Below, in pieces: positions 2,793 to 37,256 of a stretch of DNA of 37,256 nucleotides (within the stretch, counting starts at the first letter, position 1; each line of letters begins with the position of its first letter). This DNA is from a virus. Made by a program: the position numbers and the translations under genes. The stretch lies in the IMG/VR virus record IMGVR_UViG_3300045988_142508; one strand, 5' to 3'. A model generated the notes under the pieces. That model ran no database searches and was not told where the DNA came from. It saw nothing but the letters and a program-made list of their open reading frames with translations.

Positions 2793-3610
2793 GGCGGTTC
2801 GCTCCTTTCCTCGCAGACCGTCAAGTCGAATTGGAATCCTCCCGGCCAGCTGATCGGCTGTGTTCCGGGCGCGAGCGGTTGGAACACGTACCGGCCGGAA
2901 TCCTTGCCCGACCCTCGCACGGCCTGCGCGAAGCAGTTTGTGGCGAGACCTGTGCCGCTGACCATGGTGACGGTCCTGACATCGCCGGTGCCGTCGATTT
3001 CCAGACGCGAGCCGGATGGCACGGTCACGTCGACCTCGTACCGGTTGGTTCCGATGATGACGTACGGGTTTGTGCACGGTCCGAATATCGTGAGCTTGAC
3101 CGGCTGCGGGATGGATGTGTCGTTGACGATCTCGGCACCCAATGCCATGCCGGCGAAATCATGCGGATAATCATATGGATAGTCAAGGTCGGCGGTTCCG
3201 GAATCGTATCGCGGCGTGAAATGCGTCATGGTCGGACGGCGCCACACGCCATCGGCCAGCACGATGGTCAACTGCGTCTCGACCATCGTGGGCGTGATGG
3301 ATTGCGGTTCGCTTTTCGTGATCCACGCTTTGGCTTCCCATTCGCCGTCGGCCACGAGCGTGCCCGGGTTCCCGGATGCCATGTCGGCGTCCGAGAGGCG
3401 GCGCAATAGGTTGAGCGTCTCCGGAGAATCGTGGATCTTCACGGTGATGGTCGTCTCGCGTGTCTTGCGTGCGATGCCCGTGATGCCGCGCGAGACGAGG
3501 CTGTAATCCCAGATGCGGGCGCGCAGTCCGGTGAGTGTCTCGCCATAGAGCGGCCCTTCGAAACCGATCGACTCGCCTGTTGCGCCGCTCACGTAGCTCA
3601 GGGTTCTCAT
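2783..3610 (-). CDS. Distal tail protein (Dit-like phage tail family protein), 275 aa
   Basis: It sits immediately downstream of the tape measure gene (4-nt overlap) and upstream of the tail-tip and fibre genes. Translation MRTLSYVSGATGESIGFEGPLYGE... is typical of siphovirus Dit proteins. Confidence 0.7.
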   Translation of the reverse strand: MRTLSYVSGATGESIGFEGPLYGETLTGLRARIWDYSLVSRGITGIARKTRETTITVKIHDSPETLNLLRRLSDADMASGNPGTLVADGEWEAKAWITKSEPQSITPTMVETQLTIVLADGVWRRPTMTHFTPRYDSGTADLDYPYDYPHDFAGMALGAEIVNDTSIPQPVKLTIFGPCTNPYVIIGTNRYEVDVTVPSGSRLEIDGTGDVRTVTMVSGTGLATNCFAQAVRGSGKDSGRYVFQPLAPGTQPISWPGGFQFDLTVCEERSEPPWT

Positions 3611-11202: not shown

Positions 11203-11442
11203 TCAGAGATTTCCCAGCGCTTTTCTTCGCGCGTATTCGGACCGCAGCTCGTCGGTCGACACATAGTCGCCGACGGACCAGCGCTTCTTTCCTTCGTTCC
11301 TGACCCATTCATATTCGTCCTGCGGCATGGAGATGTCGCCATACTTGCGTTTGATTTCCGCAAGATGGCGCTCATCGGTGACTTCCTTCAAATCACCGGG
11401 CATAAACGTGAAGCGGTCGGAACGATCCATAGGCTCAATCAT
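11203..11442 (-). CDS. Hypothetical 79-aa protein translationally coupled (ATGA) to the MuF-ART gene; candidate ART-associated or immunity factor
   Basis: ATGA overlap at 11439-11442. Translation is MIEPMDRSDRFTFMPGDLKEVTDERHLAEIKRKYGD.... A terminator follows. Confidence 0.65.
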   Translation of the reverse strand: MIEPMDRSDRFTFMPGDLKEVTDERHLAEIKRKYGDISMPQDEYEWVRNEGKKRWSVGDYVSTDELRSEYARRKALGNL

Positions 11443-12854
11443 AGCAGTCTCAGATAAACGATCGGCCTGCCGTCGGATGCTCCAAGCCCTTCGAAACGAA
11501 GAGTCCTTCCTCTCGGCAGGAGAATTTCGTATTCTCCCGGATGCTGAGTGATCGGCTCCACATACACGCCGGCGCTTCCCGGCGGTACCAGGATTCTTGT
11601 GGCGATGCGGTCTTCCCCATCAACGTCAATGCCTCCCTCCTTGATGCTGGTGGCCATGTAGCCGATGTGTTCGAAGGTGCGACCGGTATTCAAATCGAAA
11701 AGCGACTCCATGTCGTTGACGTGGAACGTCGACAACCGCATCTGCCTGTCGACCGTGAAACGTTCTCGGGTGATATGGTCGGATATCGCTTCGTCGATGC
11801 ATTCGACCTGATGGATGACGTCTTTCGACGGGTTTCGTCCGCCGAACAGGTAGCCGTTGATACTTTTATAGCTGTCTCCGGTCCAATCCATCAAAGCCGC
11901 GATCTTCTCGTCGTTGGAGAATCTATCTCCAGGCATCCTGACGCTGTAATCCGACAATCTCGATAGTTCGGAAGCACTGATCGGAATCGATTTGCCGCTC
12001 CATCGAATCGTCGGTTGGGCAGTCACGCCATCATTGACCTCATCGTGATAGATGCGTCTCAATTGGGCTAGCGTGTCACGCCAGTCGCCGTCATCGCCGG
12101 CCGCGGCCTTGGCTGCCTGGTACATTTCACGATACTTGTCCGGATCGTATCCTTTGAGTTTGCTGCTGCCCCAGCTTGGCACGATGTCGCAATCGCAGTC
12201 CGCATGGTATTGCATCTGCCGTCCGGCGGTGTCCCCGCTCAGGTAGGAGAATCCACGCGAGGCGAGCATAAGGCAGAACGCGCATGTCTTAGCCCCTCGT
12301 GGGACGCGAGCCCAGCGAGGCTTGGTGGGATCGTTGGCCACGGCCCTCTGCATGGTCAGCCGTCCGACCGTCTGAACCAGATTCTGCACGTATTCCAGCG
12401 CCTGCTCCTCGTCGGCGAACGTTGGCCACAGGTCGTCGATGGTTCTTCCGGCGTTGTTGTGCACGACGCCGTTCTCATCTGGAATGACGTCCTTGTAATG
12501 CAATCCCATGAAGTCGGTGTTGTTGAAACCGCCTTCCATCTGCCAGACCGCACGGTCGGCGGTGATGGTCGGCGGATCGTATTCCGGCATGTCGATTCCG
12601 CAGTATTGCGCCCATAGGTCGCGCACATGGCTGTAGTAGTCGGATGCGAGTTTGTTGGCCGCGTCGGCGTACCGGTTGATCTCCGCTTTGATGAGTTCCT
12701 GGCTTTCACCGTCCCAGACAAGTCCTGAAACGCTGTTGCCTGCCTCCTTCTGCAAGCGGCTCATGGTGTCCGTGTAATCCTCGTACAGGTCGTTGAGGTC
12801 GAGTTCAAGCCTTCTGTGTTGTTCCGGAGGCAGGTTCAGACTGTTCAGGCTCAT
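11439..12854 (-). CDS. MuF-like minor capsid (head morphogenesis) protein fused to a C-terminal ADP-ribosyltransferase (exoenzyme C3/VIP2-type) domain, 471 aa
   Basis: It is located directly after the portal gene. The N-terminal half contains VPRGAKTCAFCLMLASRGF...YHADCDCDIVP (MuF-like). The C-terminal ~180 aa carry the ART signature: YKSINGYLFGG, the Arg region FTVDRQ, the STS-like GYMATSI, and the ExE motif GEYEILLPRG. Confidence 0.85.
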   Translation of the reverse strand: MSLNSLNLPPEQHRRLELDLNDLYEDYTDTMSRLQKEAGNSVSGLVWDGESQELIKAEINRYADAANKLASDYYSHVRDLWAQYCGIDMPEYDPPTITADRAVWQMEGGFNNTDFMGLHYKDVIPDENGVVHNNAGRTIDDLWPTFADEEQALEYVQNLVQTVGRLTMQRAVANDPTKPRWARVPRGAKTCAFCLMLASRGFSYLSGDTAGRQMQYHADCDCDIVPSWGSSKLKGYDPDKYREMYQAAKAAAGDDGDWRDTLAQLRRIYHDEVNDGVTAQPTIRWSGKSIPISASELSRLSDYSVRMPGDRFSNDEKIAALMDWTGDSYKSINGYLFGGRNPSKDVIHQVECIDEAISDHITRERFTVDRQMRLSTFHVNDMESLFDLNTGRTFEHIGYMATSIKEGGIDVDGEDRIATRILVPPGSAGVYVEPITQHPGEYEILLPRGRTLRFEGLGASDGRPIVYLRLL

Positions 12855-29683: not shown

Positions 29684-29840
29684 AAGAAGCTCAGCGTCCA
29701 CATACCGCGACGGGAAACAAAAAAGGGTCCCGCCCGAACACAGTCGGACGGAACCCAAGGAACCAACAATCAGCATTTCCGTTTTCACCAAAATGAGGTT
29801 CCACGCACAGTGTAGCGCGGATCCTCGGAAAGAGACAACC

Positions 29841-31121
29841 ATGGCCAGAGCGTTCGTAGACGACAGATGGCTCAAAAACGACGAGGACGGTAACCCACCC
29901 AGCAGGGCCGCGAAACAGTCGCTGGCCAATGCGAAGGATCCGATGAAAGCCAATGTGCCCGGCAAATGGCGGTCCGCGCTGTACGGCCAAGGCTCACGGT
30001 GGAGATGCCGCTGGTACACGCTTCGAGACGGCAAACGCGTCCAGAAATCACGGAACTTCGCCAAGCTCCGTGACGCTGAGGAATACGCAGCGGCCATCGA
30101 GGACGACATCAGACGCGGCAAATACCGCGACCCGCAGCAGGAACTACGCATCTTCCGGGACGTTGCCTCCGAATGGACGGACGGCAAGATGGATATCAAA
30201 CAGGGCACTTTGGGCAGATACCGCCGCGAATTGCGCGTTTATATCAACCCCAAGTGGGGCGATCGCACACTGAGGGAAATCCAACGCGACGAACTGCAAC
30301 AGTGGGTCACGCAGCTCACCGAAGGCGGGTATCCCGCCGAACTGCAGGACGATCGCGAATCGAAGCCATTGAGTCCACGCAGCATCCGCAACATCGTCAA
30401 GGTCGTCATGGGCGGTGTCATGGAATTCGCTTTGGAGCACGGCTGGATCGGAGAGAACCCCATTGAAAAGGTCACCGTGCCGCGCATCACGCAATCCGAT
30501 GACGACATGGTGTTCCTTACCGTCGAGGAGGTGGAGTTGCTGGCCGGCATGGCCGAACGGGCAGGACGGCCGGTAGACGGGCTGATCGTCCGCTGGCAGG
30601 CATACACCGGTGCCCGCATTGGCGAGACGCTGGCACTCAAATGCGGCGACGTGGATGTGGAATCACGCAGGGCGCGCATCCGCCGCACTTGGACCGACGA
30701 CGGCAAAGGCAGTCTTGTGCTGGGCACGCCGAAGAACGGCAAACCGCGCAGCATCGCCATACCCAGATTCCTCATACCGTCCATCGAACGGCAGATGGAG
30801 GGCATGGGCGACGACGACTGGCTGTTCCGCGCGGCAAGAGGCGGGAACCTGTGGACGAACACGTGGCGGACGCGTGTCTGGCGAAAGGCCGTCCGACTGG
30901 CCGGCATGGAGGACGAGGGCGTGACCATCCATAGTTTGAGGCATAGCTATGCGAGCTTTGCGATTGCTCAAGGCGCAGACGTGAAGACCCTACAGATGCA
31001 GCTCGGCCACTCCTCACCCAGCATCACGCTGAACACATACACGGCTCTCTGGCCGGAACGATTGGACGATGTGGCGGACGCGATTGGCGAGCTGCGCGCT
31101 GAACAGTTGAAGACCGTCTAG
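29841..31121 (+). CDS. int: Tyrosine integrase, 426 aa
   Basis: ATG at 29841. Catalytic boxes YTGARIGETLAL (R) and HSLRHSYASFAIAQGADVKTLQMQLGHSSPSITLNTY (H-x-x-R ... H ... Y). The attP follows immediately. Confidence 0.92.
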   Translation: MARAFVDDRWLKNDEDGNPPSRAAKQSLANAKDPMKANVPGKWRSALYGQGSRWRCRWYTLRDGKRVQKSRNFAKLRDAEEYAAAIEDDIRRGKYRDPQQELRIFRDVASEWTDGKMDIKQGTLGRYRRELRVYINPKWGDRTLREIQRDELQQWVTQLTEGGYPAELQDDRESKPLSPRSIRNIVKVVMGGVMEFALEHGWIGENPIEKVTVPRITQSDDDMVFLTVEEVELLAGMAERAGRPVDGLIVRWQAYTGARIGETLALKCGDVDVESRRARIRRTWTDDGKGSLVLGTPKNGKPRSIAIPRFLIPSIERQMEGMGDDDWLFRAARGGNLWTNTWRTRVWRKAVRLAGMEDEGVTIHSLRHSYASFAIAQGADVKTLQMQLGHSSPSITLNTYTALWPERLDDVADAIGELRAEQLKTV

Positions 31122-31169: not shown

Positions 31170-31213
31170 GCCAAGAAAAAATAAAGCCTTGGAAACATAA
31201 TGTTTCCAAGGCT
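31170..31213 (-). terminator. Rho-independent terminator (minus strand) abutting the tRNA 3' fragment
   Basis: 13-bp perfect stem AGCCTTGGAAACA-TAA-TGTTTCCAAGGCT (31185-31213). On the minus strand it is followed by TTATTTTTTCTT. Confidence 0.75.
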
Positions 31214-31216
31214 TCC

Positions 31217-31255
31217 GGTCGGGCTGACAGGATTTGAACCTGCGACATTCTGCTA
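31217..31255 (-). other. attP core: 3' portion of a tRNA gene (T-arm plus acceptor 3' strand)
   Basis: The minus strand reads ...GTCGCAGGTTCAAATCCTGTCAGCCCGACC, which is T-stem/GTTCAAATC loop/acceptor. It lies between int and the lysis genes and is flanked by the arm repeats. Confidence 0.7.
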
Positions 31256-31381
31256 TATTCGGGCATGGCATGACTGAGCGTAGCCGGGTGTGAGCATTGT
31301 CAAGAACGTTGAAATTCCAACGTTCTTAACAATACGATACGCAGTGGTTCGCTTTGTCGAAATTAACTGTTCGCAACTGTC

Positions 31382-33151: not shown

Positions 33152-33463
33152 TCAATCTGTGTTCGCGATATGCGCGTCACGTATGTCTTGGATCATCGAG
33201 GTTCCGGTTCCATTGCCGCCCAGACCGTGGTAAGCGGCATATATTCGTTCCGCGCTTTGCTTCAACGGAATGCTCGCAACACCACCTGCATCGACCATCT
33301 GACGGTACAGAGCCTCGAGTTTGCAGAACAACAGTTCCCTGACGCCCTCATGCAGTGGATCGTGACGTTGGTCGACCTTGCTCAGAATCCAGGTGACGAA
33401 CACGCCGCTGCCTCCGCTGCCGATGATGGCGATAACGATTGCGACGATGGTTTCCTGGCTCAT
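33152..33463 (-). CDS. Holin-like / lysis-associated membrane protein, 103 aa
   Basis: SD GGAAGGA. One N-terminal TM helix (IVAIVIAIIGSGGSGVFVTWIL). It lies directly upstream of the endolysin gene. Confidence 0.5.
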   Translation of the reverse strand: MSQETIVAIVIAIIGSGGSGVFVTWILSKVDQRHDPLHEGVRELLFCKLEALYRQMVDAGGVASIPLKQSAERIYAAYHGLGGNGTGTSMIQDIRDAHIANTD

Positions 33464-33482: not shown

Positions 33483-33536
33483 AAAATCCCACACGTGGCT
33501 ACCGTTGGAAGCTGCGATAACCACGTGTGGGATTTT
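33483..33536. promoter_or_regulatory. 16-bp perfect inverted repeat (bidirectional terminator/attenuator-like) between the lysis cassette and the shufflon recombinase gene
   Basis: AAAATCCCACACGTGG-N22-CCACGTGTGGGATTTT. T-runs follow the stem on both strands. It ends 10 nt before the rin ATG and 19 nt before the 33463 start. Confidence 0.6.
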
Positions 33537-33546
33537 GGAGGTTGAA

Positions 33547-34419
33547 ATGTTGTTGGGAACGTTTGTGGATGAGGTCTGGTGGCCCTCCTGCGGGAAGCTT
33601 CGCGAGTGCACGAGGGTGGGCTACGAGTCGGCCTACCGCTGCCACATCCAGCCGAAATGGGCTGGCGTCGACATGGAGTCGATCACCGCGAACGACATCG
33701 AGGAGTGGCTCGGCTCGTTCAATCAGGCCGGCGCCGCACGCAAGGCGTGGGCCGTGCTGCGGGCGATACTCCGACTCGCCTATCGCAAGGGAGTCACCGA
33801 CAATGACGTGACACGTCGTGAAATCAGACTGCCGCACCTGCGGCGGTATGAGCCGCGCGTGCTCGACGCCAGACAGGTAAGACGGCTGCTCAAAGGCTTC
33901 TACGGTCACGCGTTGGAAGCCTGGTTATTGGTCTCCGTCTGCGCGGGACTGCGCCGATGCGAGTCCGTCGGCATTGAATGGGCCGACTTGGATTTACGCC
34001 GGGGAACCGTGACCGTCAAAAGGTCAGTGCAATGGGTCGCTGGACATGAAACGGTCACCGACCCGAAGACCGACCAGAGCCGACGGACGGTCGCACTACC
34101 ACGGTTCGCAGTCAAACGGCTCGCGCAATTGCGCCACGGCAGAACCGGCAGGCTGGTCGGCGATCTGAACGCCAACCAGGTGGCAGCTCATTACACGTCA
34201 TGGTGCCAACGCATGAAACTCCCCTGCGTGCCGCCAAGGAACCTCAGGCACACCTTCGGCACTCTGGCAATCGCTGCGGGAGCCGATATCTCAGTGGTCG
34301 CACGACAACTCGGTCACAGCGACATCAAGACAACCGCCCGCTACTATCTCCGCCCCGATTTGTCCGTGCTGAGAAGTCTGCAGCGGGCATGGGAAAGACT
34401 CATCATCGGAGCCGCGTAG
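33547..34419 (+). CDS. rin: Shufflon-associated tyrosine recombinase (Rci/Rin-like), 290 aa
   Basis: SD GGAGG-N6-ATG. Catalytic boxes CAGLRRCES (R) and RNLRHTFGTLAIAAGADISVVARQLGHSDIKTTARYY (H-x-x-R..H..Y). Its stop codon TAG is the first triplet of recombination site A. Confidence 0.85.
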   Translation: MLLGTFVDEVWWPSCGKLRECTRVGYESAYRCHIQPKWAGVDMESITANDIEEWLGSFNQAGAARKAWAVLRAILRLAYRKGVTDNDVTRREIRLPHLRRYEPRVLDARQVRRLLKGFYGHALEAWLLVSVCAGLRRCESVGIEWADLDLRRGTVTVKRSVQWVAGHETVTDPKTDQSRRTVALPRFAVKRLAQLRHGRTGRLVGDLNANQVAAHYTSWCQRMKLPCVPPRNLRHTFGTLAIAAGADISVVARQLGHSDIKTTARYYLRPDLSVLRSLQRAWERLIIGAA

Positions 34420-34433
34420 CTTTCCGTAACCCT
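34417..34433 (+). repeat. Shufflon recombination site A (TAGCTTTCCGTAACCCT)
   Basis: One of five 17-mers sharing the core TTCCGTA(A/G)CC. It heads silent cassette V4. Confidence 0.85.
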
Positions 34434-34680
34434 GCCGTTCGGGAAAAGCAATGGCAACGGAGGAGTCTATCCAATCGGGAAAATACCCAATCCGAACGCG
34501 ATTAAGGCTTTGAATGGCAGAGCCATACTATCGTCTGGGACGACAGTGGCGATTCCATTCATCCACCCGTCATACCTGCAACGTTCGGTCCAAGTATCGA
34601 TCGCGCCGGACGGGACCGTTAACCTGCTCGTTGGTCCTGAAGTTGCTGTCACAGGTGGAATCGTGGAAATCCATTTTTAA
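34423..34680 (+). other. Silent start-less C-terminal cassette V4 (SVT-LPFGKSNGNGGVYPIGK...GGIVEIHF*)
   Basis: Open for 85 codons in the frame set by TCC GTA ACC of site A. It has no start codon or SD and is absent from the ORF track. Confidence 0.75.
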
Positions 34681-34696
34681 TAGCATTCCGTAACCA
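34681..34696 (+). repeat. Shufflon recombination site B (TAGCATTCCGTAACCA)
   Basis: It immediately follows the V4 stop (TAA 34678-34680) and heads cassette V2. Confidence 0.8.
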
Positions 34697-34992
34697 AGAC
34701 TTTGATTGAATCGCAGTATGGCACCGTGACCGGCGTGAAGTCTGGCAAGATCGCGCAGATTAGCATCAACTGGAAAAGCGCGAGCACTGACTCGTGGGGC
34801 AGTGGACAGTTCGGTACAATTCCGGAGGGTTGGAGGCCTGCGGTCGTCACGCATGGCACGTGGTCGGGGCGTGATGGTGGCAGCCAGCGTGATTTCATTC
34901 TGGAAACGAATGGCAATTTCCGTTATGTCAATTGTGGCGCGGTGCAGAACAGCGGCACGTTCTCCGGGACGATGACCTACATTCTCGCCTGA
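34687..34992 (+). other. Silent C-terminal cassette V2 (SVT-KTLIESQYGTVTGVKSGK...TMTYILA*)
   Basis: It is in frame with TCC GTA ACC of site B and corresponds to ORF 34702..34992. Confidence 0.75.
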
Positions 34993-34993
34993 A

Positions 34994-35010
34994 TAGCTTT
35001 CCGTAACCCT
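34994..35010 (+). repeat. Shufflon recombination site C (TAGCTTTCCGTAACCCT)
   Basis: It is identical to site A, follows the V2 stop, and heads cassette V3. Confidence 0.85.
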
Positions 35011-35335
35011 TTCCGCGCCGAACACGAACTGGAAAGTGGATTACCGCACCGCCTTGGTCGGCAGGATGCTTCTAGTCGCATTCCACGCCAATCGCCTCAA
35101 CACCGATTGGAACGCGGCGAAAGAGTGGGAGGTGTCACAGATTCTCAAACTCCCAGCCGGTTTGGAGGCGGCGTTCGAGGTACATTGCGCCGCAATATCC
35201 AATTCGAGCATCGGATTGCATGGCGTCGAAGTGCAGGTGGCGCAGCACACCATCGGCTTGCGTTCCTCGGGAAAGATGACAGTAAGCGCAAACGGGGGAT
35301 GGGTCGAAGGCTGTATCACGGTGCCACTTGTCTAG
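35000..35335 (+). other. Silent C-terminal cassette V3 (SVT-LSAPNTNWKVDYRTALVG...CITVPLV*)
   Basis: It is in frame with TCC GTA ACC of site C and corresponds to ORF 35036..35335. Confidence 0.75.
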
Positions 35336-35688
35336 GAGAACGTCACTCCACTAGGAATCGGCATGGAAAAACGCTGCATCAGAATGTTCTCCCTGCCAAT
35401 TCCGCCAAGTAACGTAATACTGCCATCCGGATTCCAATTCGCTTGCTTGTTGTAGTGCGGATCCGCAAGACTTGATCCAACACATCCCAGTCCAATTGTG
35501 GCCGATGGACGTATCCCTGACTGATATAACCAGACACGATAGTTCGAGATTTCGACGGTTGATTTGAAAGAGCTCAAATCGACATACAGCATGTTGCCCT
35601 TGACGGTAATCGTGTTGGATCCACCATATAGGGCGCCAACAAACGATCCTGTGTCCTGAAACTTAAAGGTAGCAGTGAGGGCTACGGA
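35332..35688 (-). other. Silent C-terminal cassette V5 (SVA-LTATFKFQDTGSFVGALYGG...SGVTFS*)
   Basis: It is in frame with TCC GTA GCC of site D, includes ORF 35332..35592, and runs in the same orientation as the expressed gene. Confidence 0.7.
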
Positions 35689-35694
35689 AAGCTA
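35678..35694 (-). repeat. Shufflon recombination site D (minus strand TAGCTTTCCGTAGCCCT)
   Basis: It lies 4 nt downstream of the stop of the expressed gene (35699) and heads cassette V5. Confidence 0.8.
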
Positions 35695-35698
35695 GAAA

Positions 35699-36499
35699 TC
35701 ATGGGATTGGGAAACAAAGCGTGCCGACGCAATCCTGATTGCTGCCAGCGGCTCCCATGTTCGCCACTCGGATAGTTCCATCAGCTCTGGCCGTGAGGCT
35801 TCGCGCCGTTTGCCCATTTGATACAAGGCAGACAGTCGACAAGTCAACGATGGGACGATACCAGGACGCGAGCTTTACCGGACATTCAACAGCATCCCAA
35901 CTGCCCGAACCGATTTTCCCACTGAACTTGATCAAAATCATCCTGCCGTTACGCATGATGATCCAATTGGAATCCTGGTACAGGGTTACGGAATCCCACA
36001 GCTGGCTCATCGGAGGCAACTGCTTGACAAGCATGACAGGAGTTCCAGCGGTGATGCCACTGATCGGGATACGGGCGATCGGAATCCATACGGTGCCGGA
36101 ATTGTTCAGGATACTACCCGACGGTACCGTGGGGTCAGCCGCCGTGCCACTGGTGGCGGTGCCCTTCAGCACCGCGAGCGCGATCGTTTCGATGTTGTTC
36201 GAGTCTCGCGTGTATTTCACGCAGATTAGGTCGTTGCGGTTCCGTCCTGTGACTCCGCTTTCGATGGTGACGGTTTCCGCCGCGGTGACGCGTGCGTATC
36301 GTCCTTCGATCACAAGGTTGAGGACCGGGATGAGCGCTTTGTTTGCTGACTGCATGGTCACGGCGGGGAATTTGCCGTCGCTGCCTTGCAGCAGGTAGTT
36401 GCCGTTTCCGACCAGTCCGGCCTGCATGGCTCCTTGGTCGCTGGATGTGATGTGCGGAGCGCCGGCCTTGCCGGTGATGAGATTCATGGTCATGGTCAT
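35699..36499 (-). CDS. Receptor-binding / tail fibre protein with shufflon-exchangeable C-terminus (currently fused to cassette V1), 266 aa
   Basis: MTMTMNLITGKAGAPHITSSDQGAMQAG... The constant part runs to ...LWDSVT (site E), followed by 94 aa of V1. It is the last gene of the tail module, with ATGA coupling upstream. Confidence 0.8.
   Translation of the reverse strand: MTMTMNLITGKAGAPHITSSDQGAMQAGLVGNGNYLLQGSDGKFPAVTMQSANKALIPVLNLVIEGRYARVTAAETVTIESGVTGRNRNDLICVKYTRDSNNIETIALAVLKGTATSGTAADPTVPSGSILNNSGTVWIPIARIPISGITAGTPVMLVKQLPPMSQLWDSVTLYQDSNWIIMRNGRMILIKFSGKIGSGSWDAVECPVKLASWYRPIVDLSTVCLVSNGQTARSLTARADGTIRVANMGAAGSNQDCVGTLCFPIP
35982..35998 (-). repeat. Shufflon recombination site E inside the expressed receptor-binding gene (minus strand TGGGATTCCGTAACCCT, codons W-D-S-V-T-L)
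   Basis: It marks the junction between the constant N-terminal part and the currently fused variable C-terminus V1. Confidence 0.85.
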
Positions 36500-36755: not shown

Positions 36756-37256
36756 TCAGGCTGTGCGCTGGTAGATGTGTCCCGGAAGGATGGTGTTGCA
36801 TTCCTTCCAAGTGCCGCCGTAGGTGGTTCCCGGATTTGTTGTGGCGGTGGTCCAGTAGAGGGAGCCGACCGGGTGGGCGGCGATGAACGCCTGGCTTGCG
36901 CTCATGCCCGTCTCGCCCTTGTCGCCCTTCGGGCCGACGAGGCTTGTGTTCGAGACTGGCTTGAACGTCACGTTTTTCCCGGTGGCTGTGATCTGTGCGT
37001 ACATCAGGTTCTTGCCGCCGTTGGTCATGGCGAAGAAGTATTCGCCTACGACCGGGGCACGGTTGAAACTGAGTGTCTGCCAGTCAAAATCCGAGCATGC
37101 GGACGTCCAGTATCCGGATAGTATGCGTGTGATGATCAAGGCAGGCAACCCGGTCTCGCCGCGTTGGCCGGCCTCTCCTTTCGCTCCGGTGGCCCCGGTC
37201 GCGCCAGTGGCGCCGGCAGGGCCCTGCGGTCCTTGCACTCCCTGCTTGCCTTGCGG
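36756..37256 (-). CDS. Collagen-repeat tail fibre protein, 3' part of the junction-spanning gene (5' end at 128..1)
   Basis: ...GPQGPAGATGATGATGAKGEAGQRGETGLPALIITRILSGYW...HIYQRTA*. The GLPAL motif and N-terminus are paralogous to gene 138..1049. Confidence 0.8.
   Translation of the reverse strand, partial: PQGKQGVQGPQGPAGATGATGATGAKGEAGQRGETGLPALIITRILSGYWTSACSDFDWQTLSFNRAPVVGEYFFAMTNGGKNLMYAQITATGKNVTFKPVSNTSLVGPKGDKGETGMSASQAFIAAHPVGSLYWTTATTNPGTTYGGTWKECNTILPGHIYQRTA
37180..37256. repeat. Terminal 77-nt sequence identical to 1..77
   Basis: Exact identity to the first 77 bases of the window. Confidence 0.95.

Follow-up and report, generated by a model that had tools for sequence, protein, structure and literature searches.

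Positions 33547 to 36499 of IMG/VR virus record IMGVR_UViG_3300045988_142508, a stretch of 37,256 nucleotides (nt) that was analyzed whole and is called the window here, contain a tyrosine recombinase gene (rin), four silent coding cassettes, five copies of a short site (rix), and a receptor-binding protein (RBP) gene whose constant N-terminal part (Rc) is followed by a fifth, expressed cassette. The locus is very probably a Rin shufflon, a multiple-inversion switch of a temperate Bifidobacterium siphovirus, here of Bifidobacterium adolescentis. The system is already known, having been published in 2018 (Mavrich et al. 2018, Sci Rep 8:12772, PMC6109161), and the window is a further instance of it. 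The additions made here are modest: a 7-bp exchange region, a predicted recognition site of about 16 nt, a TAG/TGG split at site position -4, an invariant central cassette pair, an RxxR motif in the recombinase, and the size of the cassette pool. An initial annotation, made from the letters of the window without database searches, had proposed a five-cassette shufflon at this position. The features, with window coordinates and strands, are as follows.

33547..34419 (+): rin, 290-aa armless XerD-like tyrosine recombinase, putative invertase
34417..34433 (+): rix site A, TAGCTTTCCGTAACCCT
34423..34680 (+): silent cassette VA, 85 codons, TAA end; fused to Rc in 2 relatives
34681..34697 (+): rix site B, TAGCATTCCGTAACCAA
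34687..34992 (+): silent cassette VB, 101 codons; fused to Rc in 17 relatives
34994..35010 (+): rix site C, TAGCTTTCCGTAACCCT
35000..35335 (+): silent cassette VC, 111 codons; fused to Rc in 7 relatives
35332..35688 (-): silent cassette VD, 118 codons, beginning S-V-A; fused to Rc in 3 relatives
35678..35694 (-): rix site D, TAGCTTTCCGTAGCCCT on the minus strand, directly past the stop of the expressed gene
35699..35992 (-): expressed variable part VE, 97 codons, predicted RBP head domain by AlphaFold2 (AF2) and Foldseek; fused to Rc in 4 relatives
35981..35998 (-): rix site E, TGGGATTCCGTAACCCTG, inside the gene at W-D-S-V-T, where invariant RBP alignment columns stop (T172)
35993..36499 (-): Rc, constant N-terminal part of the RBP, about 168 aa, or 166 if the third codon is the start

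Recombination sites

The exact core TTCCGTA(A/G)CC occurs five times within 1.6 kb (34422-34431, 34686-34695, and 34999-35008 on the plus strand; 35680-35689 and 35984-35993 on the minus strand), with 0 further copies across the 37,256 bases of the window. Chance copies averaged 0.02 in dinucleotide-preserving shuffles, and 0 of 100 shuffles contained five or more. Count and shuffles agree with the three plus-strand sites (A to C) and two minus-strand sites (D and E) of the initial annotation. At sites A to D the repeat grows to 17 nt, TAGC(T/A)TTCCGTA(A/G)CC(C/A)(T/A) (direct family D1; inverted pairs I2, I3, I7, and I9), and each has an in-frame TAG upstream when read with TCC-GTA-RCC. Site E, with the sequence TGGGATTCCGTAACCCTG, lies within the open reading frame (ORF) 35699..36499 on the minus strand, at codons W168-D169-S170-V171-T172, the W-D-S-V-T position that had been annotated. 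The rin stop codon (TAG, 34417-34419) supplies the first three bases of site A, again as annotated.

Relatives of Rin were collected from IMG/VR (219 found, 80 kept) and from GTDB genomes. Across 335 of their sites, polymorphism at positions -10 to -1 tracks the left flank (conditional entropy of about 0), and polymorphism from +8 on tracks the cassette; the G at +8 of site D, for example, always occurs with VD. Because the left positions segregate with the flank and those from +8 onward with the cassette, exchange maps to the 7-bp TTCCGTA. Tyrosine recombinases typically have an overlap of 6 to 8 bp, which TTCCGTA fits. Outside the core, T(-5), G(-3), and CCC(+9 to +11) are nearly invariant, and the recognition site is predicted to span about 16 nt. 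Position -4 is A in 274 of 274 silent sites (TAG) and G in 61 of 61 Rc sites (TGG, Trp). In a relaxed site search, true variant sites varied only at +8 to +10, with contig L020 as the sole exception. On that contig, sites at 3483 (+) and 4792 (-), one of them the Rc site, carry the core TCCCGTA in place of TTCCGTA; recombination may have carried a core mutation over to the partner site, or the pair may be an assembly error.

The rix core in the window is TTCCGTAACCC. The published rix is printed as an 11-bp sequence, TTCCCTAACCC (PMC6109161), which differs from the window core by one base (C versus G). Of 355 sites in relatives, 353 have G at core base 5 and none has C, so the printed form is probably a misprint. 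The same paper describes an 8-bp inversion site, CAGGGTTA, at recombinase-less tRNA-Met prophages. Its reverse complement equals rix positions +6 to +13 (TAACCCTG) in sites A and E (34427-34434 and 35981-35988), a match that points to possible trans action on the 8-bp site by the Rin of a co-resident prophage.

Cassettes and receptor-binding protein

In the S-V-T frame, the open frame that follows a site is 85 codons long at A, 101 at B, 111 at C, and 118 at D, and the expressed tail after E has 97 codons. The initial annotation had four silent cassettes, each following a TAG and open in this frame. The open frames are present as described, and their lengths, given there as 82 to 117 codons, are corrected here to 85 to 118. 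The annotated lack of a start codon and ribosome-binding sequence also holds: the earliest in-frame start codons of the silent cassettes fall at codons 6 to 33, and 0 of these have a GGAGG-type ribosome-binding sequence within 18 nt upstream. The five cassette proteins share 19 to 29% pairwise identity. No site separates VC and VD, which are arranged tail to tail and whose overlapping stop codons form the palindrome CTAG (35332-35335).

The 266-aa RBP has 738 homologues and gave no useful sequence match in Pfam, NCBIfam, or PDB. In an alignment with 33 homologues, invariant columns are dense up to T172 and nearly absent beyond it, so the protein consists of a constant N terminus and a variable C terminus, and the annotated constant part of about 168 aa stands. 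In the AF2 model, residues 170 to 266 have predicted local distance difference test (pLDDT) values of 86 to 93. When this model was searched against PDB with Foldseek, the top 13 matches were all lactococcal phage receptor-binding proteins (probability, 1.00; E values of 7e-5 to 1e-3 overall; TM scores of 0.62 to 0.63 against head-only chains). They comprise RBPs of phage p2 (2wzp, 1zru, and 2bsd; E values of 7e-5 to 3e-4) and of TP901-1 (3hg0, 4ios, 4hep, 2f0c, 4hem, and 4v96 baseplate chains). On this model, VE is a receptor-binding head domain with the fold of lactococcal phage RBP heads, and the p2 and TP901-1 matches support the original suggestion that the swapped part is the receptor-binding head.

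The locus might be a true switch of a protein that is not a host-recognition device and that serves, for instance, in immune or antibody evasion or in mucus glycan binding. In favor of this, tail-associated carbohydrate-binding domains can have other targets. However, the RBP gene closes the tail module, after the genes for Dit, Tal, and the fibers, and the predicted fold is the receptor-binding head of lactococcal RBPs, matched with a probability of 1.00. We consider such another function unlikely and infer that the heads confer differing receptor or host specificities.

Inversion among relatives

The window cassettes recur in relatives in many orders and in both orientations, always with the site 5′ of the cassette. 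Cassettes out of frame in relatives, an outcome that the initial annotation had weighed, were not what the comparison returned: at 335 of 345 full-context sites the S-V-T frame stays open for 70 codons or more (median, 101), and the medians of the other two frames are 17 and 1. Clustering at 60% identity yielded 18 cassette families, about 12 of them recurrent, and each recurrent family occurs in both orientations. Eleven of the 18 families, including all five window cassettes, were seen fused to Rc. Relatives carry 2 to 8 cassettes. Among 58 loci with a complete shufflon there are 57 distinct arrangements, all of the form >...> <...< with one tail-to-tail junction. In relatives that carry both VC and VD (most complete loci), the two are always paired as the central tail-to-tail unit, as expected from inversion topology.

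A reachability model was built in which inversion may occur between any plus-strand and any minus-strand site, and all states were enumerated. No inversion allowed by this model splits the central pair. Ten loci have the cassette set {A, B, C, D, E, f0}; they show 9 arrangements, all of which fall among the 240 reachable of 3,600 conceivable states. From the arrangement in the window, 48 states can be reached, and the number of inversions that bring a cassette to expression is 0 for E, 1 for A, B, or C, and 2 for D. The full enumeration thus returns the switching order in the initial annotation, in which A, B, and C were one inversion from expression and the cassette at D (there named V5) two.

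Two complete lysogen chromosomes, CP156177.1 (L149) and AP028457.1 (L150), share 4,873 nt that span host flank, lysis genes, and rin with 100% identity. Their arrangements, >D C< E< f0< B< A<* in L149 and >A >D C< E< f0< B<* in L150, are two inversions apart. The initial annotation had also allowed for the case of no inversion; the relatives, near-identical phages and lysogens included, are inverted exactly at the sites. Contigs of 21 relatives end within the shufflon, 13 of them no more than 50 nt from a site. Such breaks at sites would be expected of a mixed population. Metagenomic contigs and contigs of metagenome-assembled genomes that end at or near rix, often just past the rin stop codon, were noted in L003, L019, L025, L030, L031, L042, L061, L069, L073, and L082 to L084. 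With so many contigs ending at or near a rix site, the shufflon systematically breaks short-read assemblies.

These data bear on an unprogrammed origin, in which the locus is an exchange hotspot or a graveyard of cassettes and its arrangements stem from occasional recombination of different phages over evolutionary time. Cassette sets do vary by lineage (2 to 8 cassettes, 18 families), which implies gain, loss, or exchange besides inversion. Yet lysogens with identical flanks differ by inversions only, junctions always fall within the same 7 bp, the silent cassettes remain open and in frame, assemblies break at the sites, and mixed orientations have been found inside one culture (Bb423phi1, PMC6109161). 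An unprogrammed origin is hardly credible against this record.

Recombinase

Rin matches Pfam family PF00589 (E value, 3.3e-15), with a weak SAM-like core-binding domain and no arm-binding domain, and its closest PDB structure is XerD (1a0p; E value, 5e-11). Against NCBIfam it scores under every curated cut-off, with Xer models at the top. An alignment with 87 homologues shows conservation of R136, R234, H257, and Y266. The initial annotation of a 290-aa tyrosine recombinase is upheld by PF00589 and by these four residues; its HxxR box is in fact R231-N-L-R234 (34237-34248), an RxxR. The position in question is His in XerD, Rci, and the integrase of the window, and it is Arg in Rin; among the 87 homologues, 82 have Arg there and 2 have Lys. 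The exact Rin protein is present in 2,479 blocks of a public assembly index, and the sources name a B. adolescentis recombinase. A Bifidobacterium longum protein labeled site-specific integrase is 89% identical over 84% of Rin, as would be expected of an ortholog of the published Rin proteins, and a Collinsella homologue is 53% identical.

Rin as the second or principal integrase of the phage was rejected, as the window has a separate canonical integrase of 442 aa (29793..31121; phrog_1; E value, 1.8e-71), which adjoins the prophage end. The second integrase that the initial annotation had entertained as an alternative is thus set aside. The inversions could nevertheless be genuine and be made by another recombinase, either this integrase or the host XerC/D, with Rin acting in dimer resolution or as a second integrase. 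The best NCBIfam matches of Rin are to Xer models, though under all curated cut-offs, and a second inversion locus without an adjoining recombinase shows that trans action exists in these hosts (PMC6109161). On the other hand, every relative has the rin stop codon within its terminal site, Rin is only 21% identical to the window integrase, and the linkage of rin to the array is kept while the integration module varies (a tmRNA gene in L149, a tRNA-like attP in the window, and dnaJ2 in the published prophages). We find another recombinase very unlikely and infer that Rin is the catalyst of the inversions.

The gap that separates the rin start from the divergent gene 33152-33463 holds a conserved hairpin (33483-33536; inverted repeat I1) with an A-tract, a stem of 16 to 22 bp, and a T-tract. 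Two lineages of relatives that diverge in sequence both preserve this structure. The hairpin could act as an operator or terminate transcription in both directions, and it may lie outside the shufflon proper. It leaves hardly any space for a rin promoter. A scan of the locus for promoters and terminators returned nothing beyond shuffle expectation.

Phage genome and integration

The window is a complete temperate siphovirus genome, apparently with B. adolescentis as its host. Nucleotides 1-77 are identical to 37180-37256, and because of this terminal identity the window is taken as a phage genome of about 37,179 bp that was assembled as a circle. The circle is broken inside a collagen-like fiber gene that starts past 37256 and runs down to 36756. 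On the minus strand, the gene order is large terminase, portal, protease, major capsid protein, major tail protein, tape measure, and Dit, followed by a Tal-like minor tail protein, two collagen-like fibers, a small gene, and the RBP. Past the RBP lie the shufflon and the convergent rin, then a small membrane protein, endolysin, and holin, with the integrase farther on. The product of the head maturation protease gene (11439-12854, minus strand) has a C-terminal domain (residues 341-453) that resembles the ADP-ribosyltransferase exoenzyme toxin family (phrog_3895; E value, 5e-13).

The interval between the integrase and holin genes (31201-31260) contains a plus-strand fragment like the 3′ end of a tRNA, GGATTTGAACCTGCGAC, which matches the prophage junction in L146 and L153 and is probably the attP core. 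A sister prophage with identical Rin, L149, adjoins a transfer-messenger RNA (tmRNA) gene instead (L149 positions 1377-1771). The dnaJ2 attP primer sites of the published prophages (PMC6109161) are absent from the window even when 3 mismatches are allowed; a dnaJ2-type attP was rejected on these grounds, and the integration module differs. Since tRNA-like attP, tmRNA, and dnaJ2 sites differ in this way, the shufflon module is shared across phages with different integration modules.

Proposed mechanism and meaning

In the proposed mechanism, Rin would pair one plus-strand rix (A, B, or C) with one minus-strand rix (D or E), and strand exchange within the common 7-bp TTCCGTA would invert the DNA between the paired sites. 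When site E is involved, the 168-aa Rc, forming shoulder and neck, would be joined in frame at W-D|S-V-T to another head of about 85 to 118 aa. When site D is involved, the silent cassettes would be reordered for subsequent switches. The left halves of the sites, including the rin stop codon and the Trp codon of Rc, would stay put, and the right halves would move with the cassettes. Every invertible segment would span the VC/VD junction, keeping this pair central. Any of the five heads could be expressed within the 48 states predicted to be reachable from the window.

Several points weigh against reading the locus as a Rin-driven head switch. The inversion evidence comes from relatives and from published reads of other phages. 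The authors of the 2018 paper term the shufflon putative and did not find a plaque-forming host (PMC6109161). Deletion between directly repeated sites would have to be avoided, and relatives with only 2 to 4 cassettes show that cassettes are lost over time. The AF2 model of the N-terminal ~170 residues of the RBP is poor (pLDDT below 50), and that of VD, made with 17 sequences, was unusable (pLDDT, 42); the assignment as an RBP head consequently rests on VE and on the published HHpred results for 4 of 5 cassettes.

The locus bears on the isolation of phages from these hosts. Bifidobacteria are key gut commensals, and we know of no established plaque-forming phage-host pair for Bifidobacterium phages. 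A built-in switch of RBP heads would help account for the missing pairs. It also matters for host-range prediction from metagenomes, as a single phage genome would represent several specificities and the shufflon interrupts short-read assemblies. The comparison provides a population-scale view (2,479 blocks with identical Rin and 57 arrangements in 58 loci) and a sharper site definition. A further idea, which we hold only tentatively and rather doubt, is that across gut Bifidobacterium phages rix defines an open, community-wide library in which at least 12 recurrent, interchangeable head families are gained, lost, and traded at 16-nt sites and in which Rin may act in trans on co-resident prophages.

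Comparison with known systems

Distant Rin-like recombinases (22 to 30% identity; Clostridia, Lactobacillaceae, and Pseudoalteromonas) were scanned for site arrays. In loci from Clostridia and Acutalibacteraceae, L095 (312-4378) and L098 (578-4383), 3 to 4 copies of the 12-mer CCCAACCACAGG lie in both orientations around the gene of a distant 414-aa integrase; they were rejected as a shufflon and are probably arm sites of the integrase. Weak integron-integrase similarity prompts the guess that the repeats in L111 may be an integron attC array.

The shufflon of R64/IncI1 plasmids, run by Rci, is likewise a multiple-inversion system with a tyrosine recombinase, asymmetric sites, and tail-to-tail cassette pairs, and it swaps the C terminus of an adhesin (PilV). 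The R64 shufflon exchange region is 7 bp. Rin and Rci are 22% identical over 177 residues (pairwise E value, 2e-4), which is similarity at the superfamily level only; Rci has 384 aa against the 290 aa of Rin, which lacks the Rci C-terminal extension. Membership of Rin in the Rci family was rejected on this basis, so the likeness to R64 drawn by the initial annotation extends to the logic of the shufflon and not to the recombinase family. In R64 (NC_005014), rci is on the same strand as pilV, whereas rin is convergent with the RBP gene, and the target is the adhesin of a conjugative type IV pilus rather than a phage tail RBP. In a tblastn search of a plasmid collection with Rin, the best among the matches listed were generic site-specific integrases and XerD genes.

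The Min (p15B), Cin (P1), and Gin (Mu) systems are also phage-encoded inversions that swap the C terminus of a tail fiber or RBP for host range, and Min has multiple cassettes. Min, Cin, and Gin are serine invertases and use Fis together with an enhancer. The serine-invertase class was rejected for Rin, which is a tyrosine recombinase. The RBPs of lactococcal phages p2 (ORF18) and TP901-1 (ORF49) share the head-domain fold and the modularity of shoulder, neck, and head, and they tolerate chimeras (PDB 3d8m and 3da0). They differ in having only 12 to 17% sequence identity to the window protein and in that their heads are exchanged by evolution, with no built-in switch.

A Rin shufflon has also been reported in Eggerthella lenta clade-1 prophages, with a receptor-binding protein as the likely target (Microorganisms 2022, PMC8778435). 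It is the same named system in prophages of gut Actinobacteria, likened here by description only, and its host class differs (Coriobacteriia).

The closest system is the Rin shufflon of the dnaJ2-integrated prophages Bb423phi1, Bl157phi1, and Bl30698phi1 of Bifidobacterium breve and B. longum (Mavrich et al. 2018, Sci Rep 8:12772, PMC6109161), which the initial annotation had named; the published system exists and is the same one. The window differs from it in its host, which appears to be B. adolescentis, in having a tRNA-like attP and no dnaJ2 primer sites, and in its core, TTCCGTAACCC against the printed TTCCCTAACCC; a literature search found no link between a Rin shufflon and B. adolescentis. 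The published element consists of rin, variable (Rv) cassettes, 11-bp rix sites, and a 168-residue Rc, and the window shares this plan: an armless tyrosine recombinase directly beside a start-less array of five cassettes split by short asymmetric rix sites, then an Rc of 168 residues, with rix 5′ of every cassette and once in the RBP gene, in both orientations. The alternative C termini have about 95 to 100 aa in the published system and 85 to 118 aa in the window, where Rc extends to D169. Pairwise identity among the Rv cassettes is about 6 to 30% in the published prophages (PMC6109161) and 19 to 29% in the window. By HHpred, the published Rc resembles the RBP of phage 1358, and 4 of 5 Rc-Rv fusions resemble the TP901-1 RBP (PDB 4IOS, 4HEM, and 2F0C; PMC6109161), structural relatives that the window protein shares. 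Inversions at rix were seen there in virion Illumina reads and lysogen PacBio reads (PMC6109161), and they are seen here between relatives and between near-isogenic lysogens.

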